Shown here: piece after piece, positions 911 to 45,119 of the stretch
Layout of the letters: each line of letters opens with the position of its first letter
Numbering within the stretch: position 1 is the first letter of the stretch
The notes under the pieces: generated by a model
Seen by the model: the letters and a program-made list of their open reading frames with translations, nothing else
The model's database searches: none
Told to the model about the DNA's origin: nothing
Virus record (IMG/VR): IMGVR_UViG_3300045988_133551
Span: 1-50,263 of that record
Length of the DNA: 50,263 bases
Source: a virus
Strand: one strand, 5' to 3'
Made by a program: the position numbers and the translations under genes

Positions 911-3900
911 ATGCCCGGAAGCTATAACGCCGGTTCTGTCTACGCGGAAGCGACGCTCAATATCGAAAAATTCAAGGCCGCCGCGTCGCAGATGGGCGGC
1001 GAAGCCGGTAAAATCGTCACTGCCCTCGACCGTGCGGGTGCCGGGCTGGAGAAATCGCAGCGGGCATTGGATTTGCTCTCTCAAAATCTGAGCGCCGCGA
1101 AAAGCAGAGTTGATACTGCCGCGTTTAGTTTTAGCTCCGCCAGTGCTAAACTTAACGAGCTTGAAGAGGCCGCAAACGCCGCATCTATTAAAGCTGCTGA
1201 GATGGAGACAGCCTACACCAATGCTGCCCAGGCATTTGGCGAAAGCAGTATTCAAGCGGCGCAGGCAAAACCCGCATATGAAGAAGCGGCGGCGAACGCT
1301 GACAAGCTCAATGCCTCCGTCGGAAAGCAGGAAACTGTTGTGCGCAAAAGCGCAGATGCGCTCAAACGCGCCGAGCTTGCCGTAAAATCCTATGAAAACC
1401 GCATCAGTGACACCAAAGCCAAAATCGACGGATTCAACGACACGATTTCCAACCTCAATTCAGAGCTTGCCTCCGGCACGATGCAGGGAGCTGCCAGCGA
1501 TATGGATGCTGCCGGCGCAGCCACAGAAGCCCTCAACGACATTACTGATACGGCCAGTCATACACTCCAGCGAGGTTTTGCTTCTGCGGTTCAGAGCGCT
1601 GTCGGGCAGCTCGATCTGTTTCAGGGCAAATCCGGTTTGGCAGGTCTTGCCCTGCAATCTGTCCAGCGCTCCATGCAGCCGCTTATAAGCAAGCTCAGTC
1701 TCACCACGCTCGGCTTTGGTGCGCTCGCCGCCGGCGCGGTTTACGCGGCCTATAAGCTCTATGATTACGCCTCAGGCGCAAAGGCGGCCCGTGAGGCGCA
1801 GGAAGAGCTCAACAAAACGGCGCAGGAATGGGCCGATACCGATGTGACGACCAGTTATGAGAAATCGAAGGGCATGTCTGCCTTTGGCCTTGACGGCGAT
1901 GATTTCCAGCGCATGGTCAAGGGTTCCCGCGGCTGGATGGAAGAACTGACCCGCGTGTGGTCGGACGGTAAAAAAGAGACGGACGACATCGTCTCCGAGA
2001 TGGTCAGCGGCTTCACCAGCGGAACGGACGAGCTTCGCGACGGCCTTGCGGAGATCAAGGACGCAGCCGCTTCCGGCGGTTATGTCAGCGACGGATTTTT
2101 ACAGGGGCTCGACGAGGATGCGGCGCGCCTCGATGAGATCGACGCAGCCGTTGAGGCGCTGCTGAAAAAGAAGCAAAACGGCCTGCTGTCTGAGGCGGAT
2201 ACGCAGTCGCTTCAGGCGCTTTATGATGAGCGCGAGGCCATTGAGATCAAATATAAGCTCAAGCCAGACAGCGAAAACGGAAACCCGTTTGAAGAGATCA
2301 CGACAAACGTAGACGCTGCGCTCTCTAGAGGAGCGCAGGGCACGGACGTTTGGGCGGACGCTTATGCAGCGGCAACGCAGGGCCTCGCTCAGTATAACGA
2401 GGCCATCCAGCAGGAATATGATCGGCAGTATGCCCTCATCCAGCTCATCGAGGACGATGGAGAGCGCAAACAGGCCCTTGAAGACCTCAATCAGTGGTGG
2501 AATGATGCTACTACGCAGGGCGTGGACAAATATGCAGAAGCGCTCAATTATGCAATGGATTCTACCAATGTTTTTGGTGAAGGAACCGCCTATGACAATA
2601 CGGCAGATAAGCTCGAACACATCCGTCAGCTTATGATCGAGGTGTCCAAAACAGGCGATAAAACTAAGCAGGCGGAACTTGCGACGGCCCTTTCTGAATT
2701 GGATGAAACGCAGGTCGTAGAAATGACCGCCGCGTTGCAGTCAATGCAGGATGCCGCAAACAAAAGTGGCACGACGTTGAGTTCTGAGGCGCAGGATGCA
2801 TATTTCACGCTTACGTCGCTGAAAACAATACTCAACGACGAAACGTTGCAAAAAGGATTGCCTGAAGACCTCATTAAATCGATGAATGATATGTTTGGCG
2901 AAGGGCTGGACAAAGAGGTCTTACAGGTCTATGCGGCTTTGGATGCTGATTTTCTGGAAGAATCGTATACCGCATGGGCCGAAGGAGCGCATGCCGAAAT
3001 CGAAGGCACCGTCAAAGTAGTCAAATTTGAGGATGGCAATTTTACAAATTCTGCCGATCCCCAAATGAGCTATGCTTCGGCAAGCGGTCAGGTAAACAAG
3101 ACCGGTTTCCTCGGCATTCCAACTGGCACCGCAAATATGATTGACTCCCTCGCCAATAGCGTTAAAAACTATAACGAGGTGCTGAATTCCTCCGATGCGC
3201 ATAGCGCTGCTCAAATGCAAAGCGCCATATTCGAGCAAGCGTTAAACGCCGGGGGGCGCCTGAATAGCGATGACGGAAAAGGCTTTGAAGAACTCGCTCA
3301 GTACATCGCAAACGGCCTGCAAATGCTTAAAAACGGCGAATTAAGTGAAGATGAAGCCGCGCAGTTGTTCTCAGTAATCGAGAACGTACAGACAATTCTC
3401 GGTTCCGCGGACGCTGTCGGAGCCTTGGGCGATGTAGGTGTAGACTTGGCTGAAGGTCTCGCAGAGGGCTTTGCGGGATTCGGCTGGGCAAGCACCGCAG
3501 AAACGGTCGCTTCCGACATCGACGCAGCAGTCCGCGCCGCGGAGCAGTCCCATTCTCCCGCGGAGCGAACAAAGCCCATCGGAAATGACGTAGCCGCCGG
3601 CATCGGCGCAGGAATGGGCGAATACGACTTTTCCGGTGATGCTGAAACTGTCGCCGCCGCCGCAAATGCGGCCCTCAGCTCTGCGATGGCTGGCCCGACT
3701 GCGAAAACGCTGGGACGCAATTTTTCCTCCGGACTCGCGACCGGTATTCGAAATGGGAAATCCGGCGTAATTTCAGCGGCGATTGAAGTTGCGAGTGCCG
3801 CAGCACAGGCGGCGAGAAATGCACTCGATATCCACTCTCCCTCTCGCGTCATGGAATCCATCGGCGAATACTATGACCTCGGATTTATGGGCGGCATCCG

Positions 3901-24120: not shown

Positions 24121-24216
24121 CCAAGCCGAAACACCCGCGAGGGTGTCCGCCGGAACCGCCCCACCGGCGCTGACGATGGCAGGGCAAGCAATGACAGACA
24201 AAGGATGTGAAACTCG

Positions 24217-27800: not shown

Positions 27801-28086
27801 CGCCATCACCCGCATGGCGCTGGCAGGGCGCTGGGACATGCCCGACCGCAAGGTGCGCAGGCAGATCGCCCGCTTCCGGGAGGATGACAGCGACGGCATG
27901 ATCGTCGTCTCCTCCTCCCGCGGGCGCGGCTACTACCGCACCAATGACCCGGATCAAATCCGCGCCTTTATCGGAGACACCTCCGCCCGCATCCGCAGCC
28001 TGTCGAGGCTCCTGATCTGTGCGCGGCGGGCGCTCAGGCGGGCGAACGGGCAGATGGAGATGGAGATCGAAAAGGAGGTTATGTAA
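27757..28086 (+). CDS. Hypothetical DNA-binding-like protein
   Basis: SD AAGGAG. 109 aa with RKVRRQIARFRED...RGYYRTNDPDQIRAFI. Confidence 0.65.
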   Translation: MAVPSRTDIPVGRNNAITRMALAGRWDMPDRKVRRQIARFREDDSDGMIVVSSSRGRGYYRTNDPDQIRAFIGDTSARIRSLSRLLICARRALRRANGQMEMEIEKEVM

Positions 28087-28307
28087 TGCCGTATTTTATG
28101 CCCTGCCCCTTTTGTGGAGCGAGAACGCCGATTGTGCGTCTTGAAACAGATATTTCTGATTTCACTCTGGAAAACCCGGATCACGTATGCCGCGTGAAAT
28201 GCGCCCTCTGCGGAGCACAGGGGCCGACTTTCAGCGACAAGGATTATCACAATGATTTCGAGGAGCTTGCGCGTGAGGCATGGAACATGCGCACCCCAAC
28301 GGACTGA
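28086..28307 (+). CDS. Lar-family restriction alleviation-like zinc-ribbon protein (copy 1)
   Basis: MPCPFCGA...VKCALCGAQGP...AREAWNMRTP. Confidence 0.65.
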   Translation: MPYFMPCPFCGARTPIVRLETDISDFTLENPDHVCRVKCALCGAQGPTFSDKDYHNDFEELAREAWNMRTPTD

Positions 28308-28310
28308 TCC

Positions 28311-29258
28311 ATGCCAAGACCCCAAAAGGCGGGGGTAGAGTACTTTCCGCTTGACGTCGAAAACGATGACAAGCTTGATCTAATCGAGGCGGAATTTGGG
28401 CTGACAGGGTTTGCAGTAATCGTCAAGCTTTATCAACGCATCTACAAGCTTGGTTATTACTGCGAATGGAATGACGAGGTTGCCTTGCTGTTCGGGAAGC
28501 GTCTAGGGACGGGTGGCAAGGCCGTTTCGGAAATAGTGTCCGCCGCGATCCGAAGGTCGCTGTTTGACGAGGAAATCTACAGGAAGTACGGCGTTTTGAC
28601 GAGCAGAGGCATCCAGAAACGCTACTTTGAGATTGTCGCCCGTCGAAGAAATGTAGAGGTCGAACAGCGCTACCTTCTGGTTTCCTGCGAGCTCATCCCC
28701 GTAAATGTCAACATCATGTATGCAGAAACCCCGGTTAATGTCAACACCATGCAGGCAGAAACCCCGGAAAATGCATACAGAAGTACACAAAGTAAAGTAA
28801 AGGAAAGTAAAGTAAAGGAAAGTAAAGTACTGCTGCATGAGCGCCCCCTCGCGGCGGCGGCAGTGGAGACGGATCAGCGCCCTGATTTCAACACCGTCGA
28901 GGCCTACGCCTCGGGCAATCTCCGCTATCTGTCTCCGGGCAACATGGAGGAGCTTGCGTCCTTTGCCGAGGACTTTCCGGCGGACATGCTCCGCTACGCC
29001 ATCGACCTCGCCGTCGGGGCGGGAAAGCCCGCCTGGAATTACGTGCGCGGCATACTGCGCAGCTGGCAGTCCAAGGGCTTTAAGACCATCGGCGACGCGC
29101 GGAATGAGGAGCGGCCGGCGCAGGCCTCCCGCAGCCTGTATCCGGCGAAGCCCAACCCCGCCCTGCAATACGAGCAGCGCCAGCACGCCGAAAGCGACTA
29201 CAGCGACCTGTACATCGATTTGGACAAGCTCTACGGCGAAGGAGGCGACGGCAAATGA
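28311..29258 (+). CDS. Replication initiator (DUF4373-like N-terminus + DnaD/DnaB_2-like C-terminus)
   Basis: N-terminal VEYFPLDV...FGLTGFAVIVKLYQRIY and C-terminal MLRYAIDLAVGAGKPAWNYVRGILRSWQSKGFKT. Confidence 0.8.
   Translation: MPRPQKAGVEYFPLDVENDDKLDLIEAEFGLTGFAVIVKLYQRIYKLGYYCEWNDEVALLFGKRLGTGGKAVSEIVSAAIRRSLFDEEIYRKYGVLTSRGIQKRYFEIVARRRNVEVEQRYLLVSCELIPVNVNIMYAETPVNVNTMQAETPENAYRSTQSKVKESKVKESKVLLHERPLAAAAVETDQRPDFNTVEAYASGNLRYLSPGNMEELASFAEDFPADMLRYAIDLAVGAGKPAWNYVRGILRSWQSKGFKTIGDARNEERPAQASRSLYPAKPNPALQYEQRQHAESDYSDLYIDLDKLYGEGGDGK
28697..28829. repeat. Candidate replication origin: about 32-bp iterons x2.6 plus a 15-bp tandem repeat x2.6 inside the initiator gene
   Basis: ccccgtaaatgtcaacatcatgtatgcagaaa / ccccggttaatgtcaacaccatgcaggcagaaa / ccccggaaaatgcatacagaa, followed by (agtaaagtaaaggaa)x2 plus agtaaagta. 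The region is locally AT-rich. Confidence 0.6.
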
Positions 29259-29488: not shown

Positions 29489-29810
29489 CCCCCGAACGGG
29501 AAGACGCTTTATCAGCCCCTCAGAGGCTTACAAGGTCTACGAGGCGGACTGCCTCCGCCAGATTCCCGGCAGGGCCCGCCAGAAAATCGACCTGCCGGTC
29601 AACGTCCGCTGCGTGTACTACATGCCCACCCGGCGCAGGGTCGACCTGACCAACCTGCTGGAGGCCACGGACGATCTCCTCGTCCGGGCGGGGGTGCTGG
29701 CGGACGACAACAGTCAGATCGTCGCCGCCCACGACGGAAGCCGCGTGCGGCTCGACCGGGAGAACCCCCGGGTGGAGATCGAGATTGTCTCGATGATGGA
29801 GGGAATGTAA
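29421..29810 (+). CDS. rusA: RusA-family Holliday junction resolvase
   Basis: LWGAPRTKKNSQ...VDLTNLLEATDDLLVRAGVLADDNSQIV. Confidence 0.85.
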   Translation: MKLILTLWGAPRTKKNSQSIRCNPRTGRRFISPSEAYKVYEADCLRQIPGRARQKIDLPVNVRCVYYMPTRRRVDLTNLLEATDDLLVRAGVLADDNSQIVAAHDGSRVRLDRENPRVEIEIVSMMEGM

Positions 29811-30394
29811 TGGGCGCAAAGATTGACATGATCGGCAGGCGCTACAACCACTGGACGGTGATCGCCGAAGCGGAACCCAGCCCGAGCGGAAGAATCCGAT
29901 ACATGTGCCGCTGCGACTGCGGATTTGAAAAAATAATCCACGGTGAAACGCTCCGTTACGGGCATACGCATATGTGCGCCGGATGCGCAGTCAAAGAGCA
30001 GCAAACCAAGAAACAAAGCAGAAAAGCGCTCAAAGGTGAAACGCGCGTCTCCGACGCTCCCCCGGCGGCGGTCTACGTCCCCACGCTTGGCCCGCGATAC
30101 TACCTGATGCGAGGCCGGCAGGCCTATGGCCTCTCCGTTGCGGAAATGGCGCGGAAGCTCGAAATCTCCCCGCTGCTGCTGGACTGGCTGGAGCAGGACG
30201 ACAAGACCGTCACCCATCCCAAGATCGTCGAGCGCATCGCCAAGGCCTACGGCCTGACCGAGGAGCAGTGCGTGGGCATGCTGCCGAAAAACTACCGCCC
30301 CGGGCATGACTACGATCCAGACCGCTACGCCCTGCCGGAAGAGGTGCTCAGGCATTTTACGGTCATGCCTGGATACGTCCGGGTGTGGAAATGA
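29810..30394 (+). CDS. Zinc-finger + HTH protein (putative regulator)
   Basis: IGRRYNHWTVIAE...YMCRCDCG...CAGC, then RQAYGLSVAEMARKLEISPLLLDWLEQ. Confidence 0.65.
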   Translation: MGAKIDMIGRRYNHWTVIAEAEPSPSGRIRYMCRCDCGFEKIIHGETLRYGHTHMCAGCAVKEQQTKKQSRKALKGETRVSDAPPAAVYVPTLGPRYYLMRGRQAYGLSVAEMARKLEISPLLLDWLEQDDKTVTHPKIVERIAKAYGLTEEQCVGMLPKNYRPGHDYDPDRYALPEEVLRHFTVMPGYVRVWK

Positions 30395-30770
30395 GAGGAA
30401 ATGGATGAGAACGGCGGCGAGGCGAGCTGAAAAGAAATGGAGAAGAGAAGATCCGACTGGACTTGCGATGAACCGCATTGACATGGAAACGCATTGAGCT
30501 GAGCAGACTTGAGAAGAAAAGGATGAGATTGGATACGACATGAATCGAAAAGAAACGGAGGAGAAAAGACGCGCGTGGAAAAGGATATGAGATGTACTGA
30601 GAAGCAATGAATTGCAACGGAAAAGATGGGAGTGGCTGAGAGCTGAGGTGAAAAGATCAGACTTGCGAGGGATTTGCACTGCACTGATACGAATTGCAAT
30701 GGAAAGGAATAGCTCTGCATAGCTGCGATATGAAATGGCGCGGGGCCAAACAATTGAGGAGGAAAAAAAC
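30395..30770 (+). ncRNA. 376-nt purine-rich non-coding element (candidate ncRNA / structured leader; function unknown)
   Basis: About 70% purine on the plus strand by hand count. Stops occur in all three plus frames, about 20 of them TGA. The longest ATG ORF is about 16 codons. All three minus frames are open only because of base composition. Confidence 0.4.
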
Positions 30771-31364
30771 ATGAAGGAACTGAGAATCAGGATCACTCTG
30801 ACGGAAGAAGCCCTGGGCATGATGCCCGCGAACCCTGAAATCTACCGCGACTACATCGCCAGCAACGCGCCCGACGCGGCGAAGTTGGCGGAGGAGATCG
30901 AAGAAAACGGCGTGGACGCGATGGTGGAGAACGGAACCACCGTTTTCCCGAGGCTGGAGGACGGCCGCCCGTTCTTCTGGGACTACCAGATTCGGGGCAT
31001 GTTCAAGGATTCTATCGGCATGCTTCGTCGCGTGCCGGGAACGGCGTGCAGCAAGCTCAAGGCCTACAAAAAGTTCGTCGACGGCCTGATTTTCGTCCGG
31101 GAGCGTAAAATCCCCGTGGAGGTATGCGGCGAGATGGGCAACTGTCAGCGCTCGCTGCGAACGGACGGCCCGACGGGCAGCCGCACCGCGCTGGCCAGCA
31201 GCGAGACCGTTCCGGCGGGGAGCACGATGACGATGACGATTGTGATGCTGACGGACGAGCTGGAGGCGGTCGTCAAAGAGTGCCTGGACTATGGCGCGCT
31301 GCGCGGCCTCGGCCAGTGGCGCAATTCCGGCAAAGGCCGCTTCGCATGGGAGGAAATATGTTGA
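30771..31364 (+). CDS. Hypothetical protein (Gly-rich C-terminal loop GLGQWRNSGKGRF)
   Basis: ATG lies after GAGGAGGAAAAAAAC. 197 aa. I do not recognise the family. Confidence 0.7.
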   Translation: MKELRIRITLTEEALGMMPANPEIYRDYIASNAPDAAKLAEEIEENGVDAMVENGTTVFPRLEDGRPFFWDYQIRGMFKDSIGMLRRVPGTACSKLKAYKKFVDGLIFVRERKIPVEVCGEMGNCQRSLRTDGPTGSRTALASSETVPAGSTMTMTIVMLTDELEAVVKECLDYGALRGLGQWRNSGKGRFAWEEIC

Positions 31365-31498
31365 ATCAGATCATCAAGGCGGTGCTCATCGCCTACATTT
31401 TCCTGATCGGCGGTATTGCCGGTTACAACCTTGCCCTGCTGGGCTTCGGCCTGCGGAGCTTCGACGGAGAGTTTGAGGAGGAGGCAGACGATGATTGA
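31358..31498 (+). CDS. Hypothetical 46-aa single-TM peptide
   Basis: SD GGGAGGAAAT. Sequence MLNQIIKAVLIAYIFLIGGIAGYNLALLGFGL... with an acidic tail. Confidence 0.55.
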   Translation: MLNQIIKAVLIAYIFLIGGIAGYNLALLGFGLRSFDGEFEEEADDD

Positions 31499-44955: not shown

Positions 44956-45119
44956 TATAATTTAATTGCACTAAAGGGATTCTTGAGGTGGTAAATTTCG
45001 CGGCGACCACACGCCGATGGTATTGACAGGGGGCGTATGCATGCGCCTTCGAGAGATGCAGGAGAAGGCCGCGCCTGCCAAGAATCCACGAAGTGCGCAA
45101 AGCTCATACGACCGACCTA

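Follow-up and report, generated by a model that had tools for sequence, protein, structure and literature searches.

What occupies 376 nt between two genes of an early operon whose nearby junctions are tight? The gap in question separates a stop codon at 30392-30394 from an ATG at 30771 in IMG/VR virus record IMGVR_UViG_3300045988_133551, the whole 50,263 nt of which were analysed here and are referred to as the window. An earlier note on this DNA had delimited the same interval and proposed that it is a non-coding, probably functional element built from repeats rather than a gene, a proposal that our results support. As to function, the note had considered a sponge for CsrA or for the anti-Shine-Dalgarno (SD) sequence, an unstructured leader or a platform for loading ribosomes, a series of micro-ORFs that are translated, and a decayed gene.

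Results

Composition and word content of the interval

The interval is extreme in base composition. Its purine content, which the note had put at about 70% overall and about 77% in the centre, is 70.5% and 78%, respectively; the former is the maximum among all 376-nt windows of the stretch (mean 53.9%, sd 5.1). GC content is 47%, compared to 58% for the window. Stop codons are present in all three plus frames, as had been stated, and the long minus-strand ORFs that span the interval were rightly dismissed as artefacts: they exist because the plus strand carries a single TTA, CTA or TCA triplet in the whole interval, a TCA at 30657. Other counts needed revision. There are 18 TGA and 18 GGA triplets rather than about 20 and about 16 (along with 14 ATG, 2 TAG and no TAA); GA follows only 18 of 59 Ts, when nearly every T was thought to precede it, with G following 37 of 59; and a 30-codon ATG ORF at 30405-30497 is well above the supposed maximum of about 16 codons.

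Are any of these words over-represented? TGA exceeds mononucleotide expectation (18 observed versus 7.4 +/- 2.5) but not dinucleotide expectation (19.4 +/- 2.6). GGA, with 18 observed versus 15.2 +/- 2.4 in dinucleotide shuffles, is enriched under neither null, which agrees with the note's remark that its frequency is roughly what composition predicts, and the same holds for SD-like words, of which the array contains nine. Since dinucleotide content explains the TGA and GGA counts, these words are not the signal. We also considered a gene with recoded TGA (code 4) or a frameshifted gene and rejected both: no frame is free of TGA, TAG occurs as well, the indels that distinguish relatives are 5 nt long, and the sequence has a period of 5 rather than 3.

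A lattice of phased Gs

The interval is instead organised by a single base recurring at a fixed step (Table 1). Dynamic-programming segmentation divides the array into 71 consecutive units, 100% of which begin with G, compared to 73 +/- 4% when shuffled sequence is segmented in the same way. These units comprise 62 pentamers of the form GNNNN, with A as second base in 42 and C in 15, and nine hexamers, all GGAnnn. The Fourier maximum lies at a period of 5.14 nt (36/7), and G autocorrelation is sharp at lags of 5, 10, 15, 21, 26, 31 and 36, with values of 0.46 at lag 5 and of 0.46, 0.41, 0.38 and 0.48 at lags 36, 72, 108 and 144; no comparable G autocorrelation is found in the flanking genes. 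Fourier power in 180-nt windows reaches 22.5 in the lattice and does not exceed 7.7 elsewhere in the 50-kb window. Successive hexamers are 36, 46, 36, 36, 26, 36, 51 and 36 nt apart, which gives the array in the window a 36-nt super-period. The lattice sets in within the last codons of the upstream gene, and a block of the form CCAAA(A)CAA(A)TTGA..GGAG is conserved 5' of the ATG of the downstream gene in relatives.

Table 1. Features of the array and its partner gene, in window coordinates
Feature	Position	Strand	Basis
G-phased quasi-periodic array	30383..30746	+	dynamic-programming segmentation, autocorrelation, Fourier
GGAnnn hexamers	30403, 30439, 30485, 30521, 30557, 30583, 30619, 30670, 30706 (30403..30711)	+	
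Linker after lattice end, with RBS GAGGAGG (30756-30762) for the RAMP gene	30747..30770	+	
Cas7/Csm3-type RAMP protein, stand-alone, 197 aa	30771..31364	+	AF2 model, Foldseek, profile
Weak terminator-like hairpin directly 3' of the RAMP gene	31377..31394	+	consensus scan

The note's degenerate units are true segments of this array, although the G-phased pentamer lattice to which they belong went unseen. The lattice also accounts for much of what had caught the eye: the density of TGA, the tendency of T to be followed by G and the ATG-plus-TGA micro-frames all arise from units that start with G, continue with A at position 2 and end in T at position 5. Such frames are by-products of the lattice and lend no support to translated micro-ORFs.

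With only one base in five conserved, repeat finders are nearly blind to the array. TRF detects no array, and the sole direct repeat identified in the element by a repeat finder is a 70-nt pair with 71% identity. Rfam 15 covariance models, run at a permissive E-value, return nothing above E = 7 in the element, and arrays in 49 other loci have no Rfam match either. Folding of the window array (z = +1.1) gives no sign of selected secondary structure and no sigma-70 promoter was found adjoining it. The hairpin 3' of the downstream gene may or may not belong to the module, the scan that returned it finding no more terminator-like sites than in shuffled sequence.

Two structured RNAs are encoded elsewhere on the plus strand of the window: a type II hammerhead ribozyme at 24124-24188 (RF02276, 40.6 bits) and a Skipping-rope RNA at 44978-45086 (RF02924, 54.9 bits, E = 4e-10). 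Type II hammerheads also occur on the strand of the partner gene in a few related loci (L007 3384-3449, L008 3458-3523, L098 1643-1708). We rejected flanking ribozymes as processing signals, given that hammerheads occur in few loci and not consistently beside arrays.

The downstream gene encodes a Cas7-like RAMP protein

According to its structural model, the product of the gene that follows the array has a Cas7/Csm3-type RAMP fold. The AF2 model, built from 40 homologues (pLDDT 83, pTM 0.76), finds its best Foldseek matches in the PDB among type VII Cas7 (8yhe, 8z4l) and type III-A Csm chains (6ifl_F and 9ash_F, chains of about 200 aa that are presumably Csm3), with E ~1e-7, probability 1.00 and TM ~0.55. 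The protein has a long conserved beta-hairpin, or thumb, at residues 123-147, with the pattern CQRxLR...G..A.A..E, and a C-terminal glycine-rich loop, GLGQWRNSGKG. Sequence profile comparison places the C-terminal strands and this loop on the glycine-rich-loop regions of both type VII Cas7 (E = 0.037) and Csm4. A virome protein in BFVD that is 54% identical carries the automatic annotation 'Cas system-associated RAMP superfamily protein'; the 197-aa product itself belongs to no Pfam, PHROG, PADLOC or NCBIfam family.

The family is nonetheless large (5,046 clusters at 90% identity and 1,957 at 50% identity) and comes from gut, rumen and environmental phages and prophages. Among GenBank phages we encountered the protein only in four unannotated faecal-virome records, so that no cultured model was found. 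Two members are tandem RAMP-RAMP fusions (P0132, 458 aa; P0156, 432 aa), which suggests that the domain assembles head to tail, and a third (P0233) combines the RAMP protein with a PLD-like N-terminus. The E/K/P-rich C-terminal tails of P0020, P0094 and P0098 probably reflect gene calls that extend into a purine-rich array 3' of the gene.

In the window, the RAMP gene has an HNH/HTH protein, RusA and a DnaD-like protein as neighbours. The 194-aa product of the gene immediately upstream of the array (29810-30394) combines an HTH domain with an N-terminus that resembles HNH. An ori-like repeat cluster at 28697-28833, made up of a 33-nt direct repeat in two copies (28697-28762) and an (AAAGT/AAAGG)x9 tract (28789-28833), lies within the DnaD/DnaB_2-like replisome-organiser gene (28311-29258). 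The same early operon encodes a Lar-type restriction-alleviation protein (28086-28307, plus strand; PF14354, E = 3e-9), placing anti-defence genes nearby.

Array and RAMP gene are paired across loci

Is the juxtaposition of array and RAMP gene peculiar to this phage? We fetched loci from viral contigs and species-representative genomes via homologues of the RAMP protein and called an array wherever the gene's own strand showed a G period of 5.08-5.26 nt with a power of 15 or more; the 99th percentile of lattice power in background windows is 7.0. A same-strand array is present in 116 of the 124 distinct loci found in this manner. It abuts the start of the gene in 67 and its end in 42 (in L007-L009, for example, the array lies 3' of the RAMP gene), and in the remainder a single gene usually intervenes. 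Of the eight loci scored as negative, several show a weaker peak where an array would be expected or sit on truncated contigs. Period is tightly constrained, falling between 5.12 and 5.20 in 27 of 28 hand-picked relatives.

The association also holds when approached from the DNA. A scan of viral contigs that is blind to the protein, requiring three G-phased pentamers, GCAAAGGCA and then four further lattice Gs, returned 120 loci, 102 of them with a periodic array, and at least 90 of these 102 arrays have a RAMP ORF on the same strand. Those that do not are mostly at locus edges. In one case (L260) a RAMP-like ORF is divergent from the array, and two arrays, L157 7591-7850 and L204 1651-2370 (both on the minus strand), have no detectable RAMP ORF in the fetched locus; their partner may be located elsewhere in the genome or they may be orphan arrays. 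No second neighbouring gene is conserved within +/-3 kb in 144 loci.

Going by MAG labels, carriers include Oscillospiraceae, Ruminococcus, Faecalibacterium, Lachnospiraceae, Bacteroidales and Megasphaera as well as Clostridia, Atopobiaceae, Eggerthellaceae, Pirellulaceae, Anaerolineales, Bryobacteraceae and Sedimentisphaerales. The pairing of array and RAMP gene is conserved in phages and prophages of many bacterial phyla while the remaining sequence of the array changes. We regard the anatomy of the array and its association with the RAMP gene as firmly established.

Anatomy of the array class

Across 119 distinct arrays, length ranges from 208 to 1179 nt (median 488 nt) and segmentation yields 9315 pentamers and 1945 hexamers, besides 155 units of other kinds. 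G opens 91% of units; the second base is C in 42% and A in 33%, whereas positions 3-5, though A-rich, are nearly free, with A at position 3 in 46%. Hexamers read GG[A/C], occur roughly once per 5-7 units and have the junction consensus GCAAN|GGMANW|GM (1812 hexamers). Purine fraction varies between 0.57 and 0.73 and GC content between 0.32 and 0.66, and one array (L138) is T-rich between lattice Gs, so that purine richness, which first drew attention to the window array, is common in the class without defining it.

The pooled spectrum contains only a line at 5.16 nt and its harmonic at 2.58, with no component at 10.3, 18 or 36 nt, and odd and even units do not alternate. Hexamers are spaced more evenly than in shuffles of unit order (mean z = 2.6; z > 2 in 66%), with spacing peaks at 26-36 nt in 5-nt steps. 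The length of hexamer-delimited units varies between 21 and 41 nt, and no locus-specific preference for a particular hexamer spacing or super-unit length was found. There is no evidence for secondary structure being selected or avoided beyond what composition dictates (mean z = -0.08 for the 119 arrays).

These properties bear directly on the functions envisaged in the earlier note. With 18 GGA triplets, nine SD-like words and several ATG-to-TGA frames, the window array taken on its own could pass for a CsrA or anti-SD sponge, a ribosome-loading leader or a set of translated micro-ORFs. Dinucleotide shuffles contain these words just as often, however, and word densities differ about 20-fold between arrays (TGA 0.27-5.0 and GGA 0.3-5.8 per 100 nt). 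SD-like words have a median density of just 0.29 per 100 nt across the 119 arrays, which speaks against an anti-SD sponge, and the doubts that the note itself voiced about a CsrA sponge were justified, GGA being unenriched and no hairpins presenting it. Finally, since the array is 3' of its partner in 42 of 116 loci, it does not serve as a leader or ribosome-loading platform for that gene. We consider this group of explanations very improbable.

Turnover of the array among close relatives

The note had recommended a comparison with related phages. Five contigs from the same IMG/VR sample (3300045988) have flanking genes that are 93-98% identical to those of the window, and their arrays differ by whole-block replacements and changes in unit number. 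Four indels are exactly 5 nt long and larger ones measure 33, 41 and 103 nt. Lattice Gs are conserved where other positions and entire blocks turn over: among the six close relatives, 49 of 59 lattice-G columns are invariant compared to 82 of 239 other columns (Fisher p = 1e-11), keeping in mind that this test is partly circular because aligning periodic sequences favours G-on-G columns. As far as the alignments go, selection seems to target the phased G and the possession of an array rather than the sequence of the array.

Might the array be a neutral remnant, either a decayed gene or a degenerating pentanucleotide microsatellite devoid of function? Rapid turnover of units and blocks between phages that are 97% identical, and 5-nt indels of the kind produced by slippage, are what one would expect of such a remnant. 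Yet G occupies the lattice position in about 91% of some 11,000 units from 119 arrays, arrays are found in MAGs labelled as more than ten bacterial groups, and they are always beside the same gene and on the same strand. A decayed gene in particular, as the note had suggested, is incompatible with a 5-nt period, and no relative has an intact gene at this position. Of all the explanations considered, we find this one the hardest to credit.

Discussion

An RNA track for a RAMP filament?

Having established that the array is a conserved companion of a Cas7-like gene, we wondered what the two might do together. Cas7 proteins assemble into polymers along single-stranded RNA, each step spanning a fixed number of nucleotides. 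We lean, if only somewhat, towards the region being the non-coding partner array of the RAMP gene, transcribed into an unstructured RNA track along which the RAMP protein polymerises. Array and gene would be co-transcribed as part of the early operon; the array RNA would be single-stranded and unstructured, with RAMP subunits docking head to tail in the way Cas7 does on crRNA, one subunit per lattice G and each covering about 5 nt. GG hexamers could then mark register shifts or block boundaries, and either one long ribonucleoprotein filament or a series of short filaments would result.

A number of observations are consistent with a transcribed track. By homology, the RAMP protein would be an RNA binder that forms filaments. 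Array and gene are co-oriented in 116 loci and the array shows strict strand asymmetry. At equal GC, the array is predicted to fold more weakly per nucleotide than the gene beside it in 104 of 118 loci (p = 2e-16). A stringent scan for terminator-like hairpins finds none between gene and array in the 42 downstream loci and none inside the array in the 67 upstream loci. At the head of the early operon in at least 12 loci, no more than about 30 nt separate the array start from a conserved motif that resembles a promoter or operator. This motif, ACTCGGCATGGCAGTGCCTGTA..TATAGGAG, is located at or just 5' of the array start in L044, L048, L065, L076, L101, L105 and 13 further loci, and in L101 and L105 its hairpin arms, GGCA/TGCC, have jointly become GGCG/CGCC. 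The motif has the look of an early promoter/operator or of a hairpin at the 5' end of an array-first operon.

As to what such a filament might be for, we can only speculate. The module is first in the early operon in many relatives, and early position and presumed early expression make two uses candidates: anti-defence, with the filament acting as a decoy or poison for RNA-guided or RNA-sensing immunity of the host, or control over the fate of early transcripts. Known Cas7 backbones take up 6 nt per subunit and have no base specificity, so that a 5-nt, G-specific register would be new. That a CRISPR-derived Cas7-like protein polymerises in such a register on its own 'G-pentad' RNA of 200-1200 nt, constituting an unrecognised but widespread class of phage ribonucleoprotein, is a bolder claim, and one that we would place just short of an even bet.

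Rival readings of the lattice

The period of 5.15 is also half a turn of DNA (10.3 bp) and numerically fits a lattice on double-stranded DNA equally well. One might imagine a protein that forms filaments (the RAMP protein or another) making polar contacts with double- or single-stranded DNA, one at each half turn of the helix, at an origin, a centromere-like site, a roadblock or a packaging-type site. Periods of 5.12-5.20 bp, the even spacing of hexamers, as if a non-integer register were being kept (mean z = 2.6), and the fact that unit length is not locus-specific all sit well with this model, as do the location of the window array within a replication module and the presence of a tract with G every 5 nt, (AAAGT/AAAGG)x9, in the ori-like part of the replisome-organiser gene. 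However, one hexamer per 4-8 units always results in a period of 5.12-5.25, so the match to half a turn is weak evidence. The 10.3-nt component is absent, leaving only 5.16 and its harmonic; the strand asymmetry is strict, with array and gene always co-oriented; it is not obvious what a duplex would gain from purine bias away from the contacts; RAMP proteins are generally known to bind RNA; and neighbours other than the RAMP gene are not conserved. We regard a DNA-level lattice as unlikely.

In a different scenario, cleavage at GCAAN|GGM would turn the transcript into RNAs roughly 21-41 nt long, which would each be bound by a few RAMP subunits and serve as guide or decoy. Peaks of the punctuation at 26-36 nt in 5-nt steps recall the length ladders of type III crRNAs, approximately one special unit per 5-6 regular ones is reminiscent of one cap per Cas7 backbone, and placement either 5' or 3' of the protein gene is shared with TIGR arrays (PMC12045711). 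Against this, no repeat is conserved within a locus, unit length is not locus-specific, and the conserved neighbours include no Cas6-like or other nuclease partner. The would-be spacers keep the G lattice and are hence not free sequence, and a complementary C-lattice target is absent from the window (maximum C power 8.7). In our view a guide array is improbable, a shade more so than a lattice on DNA.

Relationship to known systems

The array belongs to none of the array types we compared it with: it is neither CRISPR nor type IV-B, TIGR-Tas, CsrA sponge or ToxI-type, nor is it a member of any Rfam family. The partner protein shares with class 1 CRISPR systems the Cas7-type RAMP backbone fold, thumb hairpin and glycine-rich loop, whereas the array is not composed of near-identical repeats (about 23-50 nt) and unique spacers, has a step of about 5 nt with a conserved G, and is part of a phage-carried module whose conserved neighbours (+/-3 kb, 144 loci) include no cas5/6/8/10/11 or cas1-2. 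By analogy, the array would resemble in its working, most of all, a Cas7 backbone on RNA. Type IV-B Cas7 (Csf2) filaments assemble on non-CRISPR RNA (PMC7937560). The type IV-B gene set of csf1, cas11, csf2, csf3 and a cysH-like gene is, however, not conserved at array loci, where the single RAMP gene is the sole conserved gene and csf1, csf3 and cysH are not among the conserved neighbours. CysH-like genes accompany type IV-B Cas7 systems; at a single locus (L006), a gene with an SGGKDS PP-loop-like motif, read from its translation, is located at 1978-2802 (+), about 1.2 kb 5' of the RAMP gene.

TIGR arrays alternate edge and loop repeats of 8-12 nt with 9-nt spacers, have 18/36-nt periodicity and box C/D anchors, and give rise to processed 36-nt RNAs bound by the Nop-domain protein Tas (PMC12045711, 10.64898/2026.09.09.750476). 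Here, too, a weakly conserved non-CRISPR array is carried by phages and adjoins, on either side, the gene for a small RNA-binding protein, and the window array happens to have a 36-nt unit. The resemblance goes no further: edge/loop repeats, free 9-nt spacers and box C/D anchors are lacking, the pooled spectrum has no 18- or 36-nt component, units range from 21 to 41 nt, and the partner is a RAMP protein with no Pfam Nop match.

TRAP sites in Bacillus trp leaders consist of 11 (G/U)AG triplets separated by 2-3-nt spacers. The likeness to our arrays is one of functional analogy only, namely an unstructured RNA with a base-specific contact every 5-6 nt and a homo-oligomeric reader. Array spacing is 5.15 nt, G alone rather than GAG is conserved, arrays have 40-230 units rather than 11, and the partner protein is unrelated to TRAP. 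The assembly origin of TMV resembles the array in its periodic single-base code. Type III toxin-antitoxin loci of the ToxI kind similarly feature a repeat-built non-coding array 5' of a gene for about 200 aa on mobile elements, with the 36-nt unit of the window as a further likeness, but array units here are not near-identical (TRF finds nothing), no terminator intervenes between array and gene, the array may be 3' of the gene, and the partner is a RAMP protein rather than a ToxN/AbiQ-type RNase. The array differs from CsrB/RsmZ in that GGA is not presented in hairpin loops (folding z = +1.1) and ranges in density from 0.3 to 5.8 per 100 nt.

Significance

Taken together, array and RAMP gene point to an undescribed module of protein plus array that is widespread, unannotated and unlike known array types. 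Neither the family nor the array has an entry in Pfam, PHROGs, PADLOC or Rfam, and our searches of the full-text literature on Cas7-like phage proteins, pentanucleotide periodicity and TIGR-Tas turned up no account of a periodic array partnering such a protein. A lattice of single bases at 5.15 nt is invisible to repeat finders and covariance models. Should the pairing prove functional, it would represent a new route by which viruses have exapted a CRISPR RAMP protein and a new kind of nucleic-acid signal, in which one conserved base recurs on a non-integer 5.15-nt lattice; it would account for hundreds of 'long intergenic gaps' in the early regions of phages and provide a simple system of protein plus track that could be engineered as an RNA scaffold. 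If, moreover, the array is a G-pentad track, the protein would be the first relative of Cas7 whose RNA partner is periodic in sequence and not a guide, and phages at an early stage of infection would assemble a self-templated RAMP filament, be it to counter host immunity, to control early transcripts or for some other purpose.
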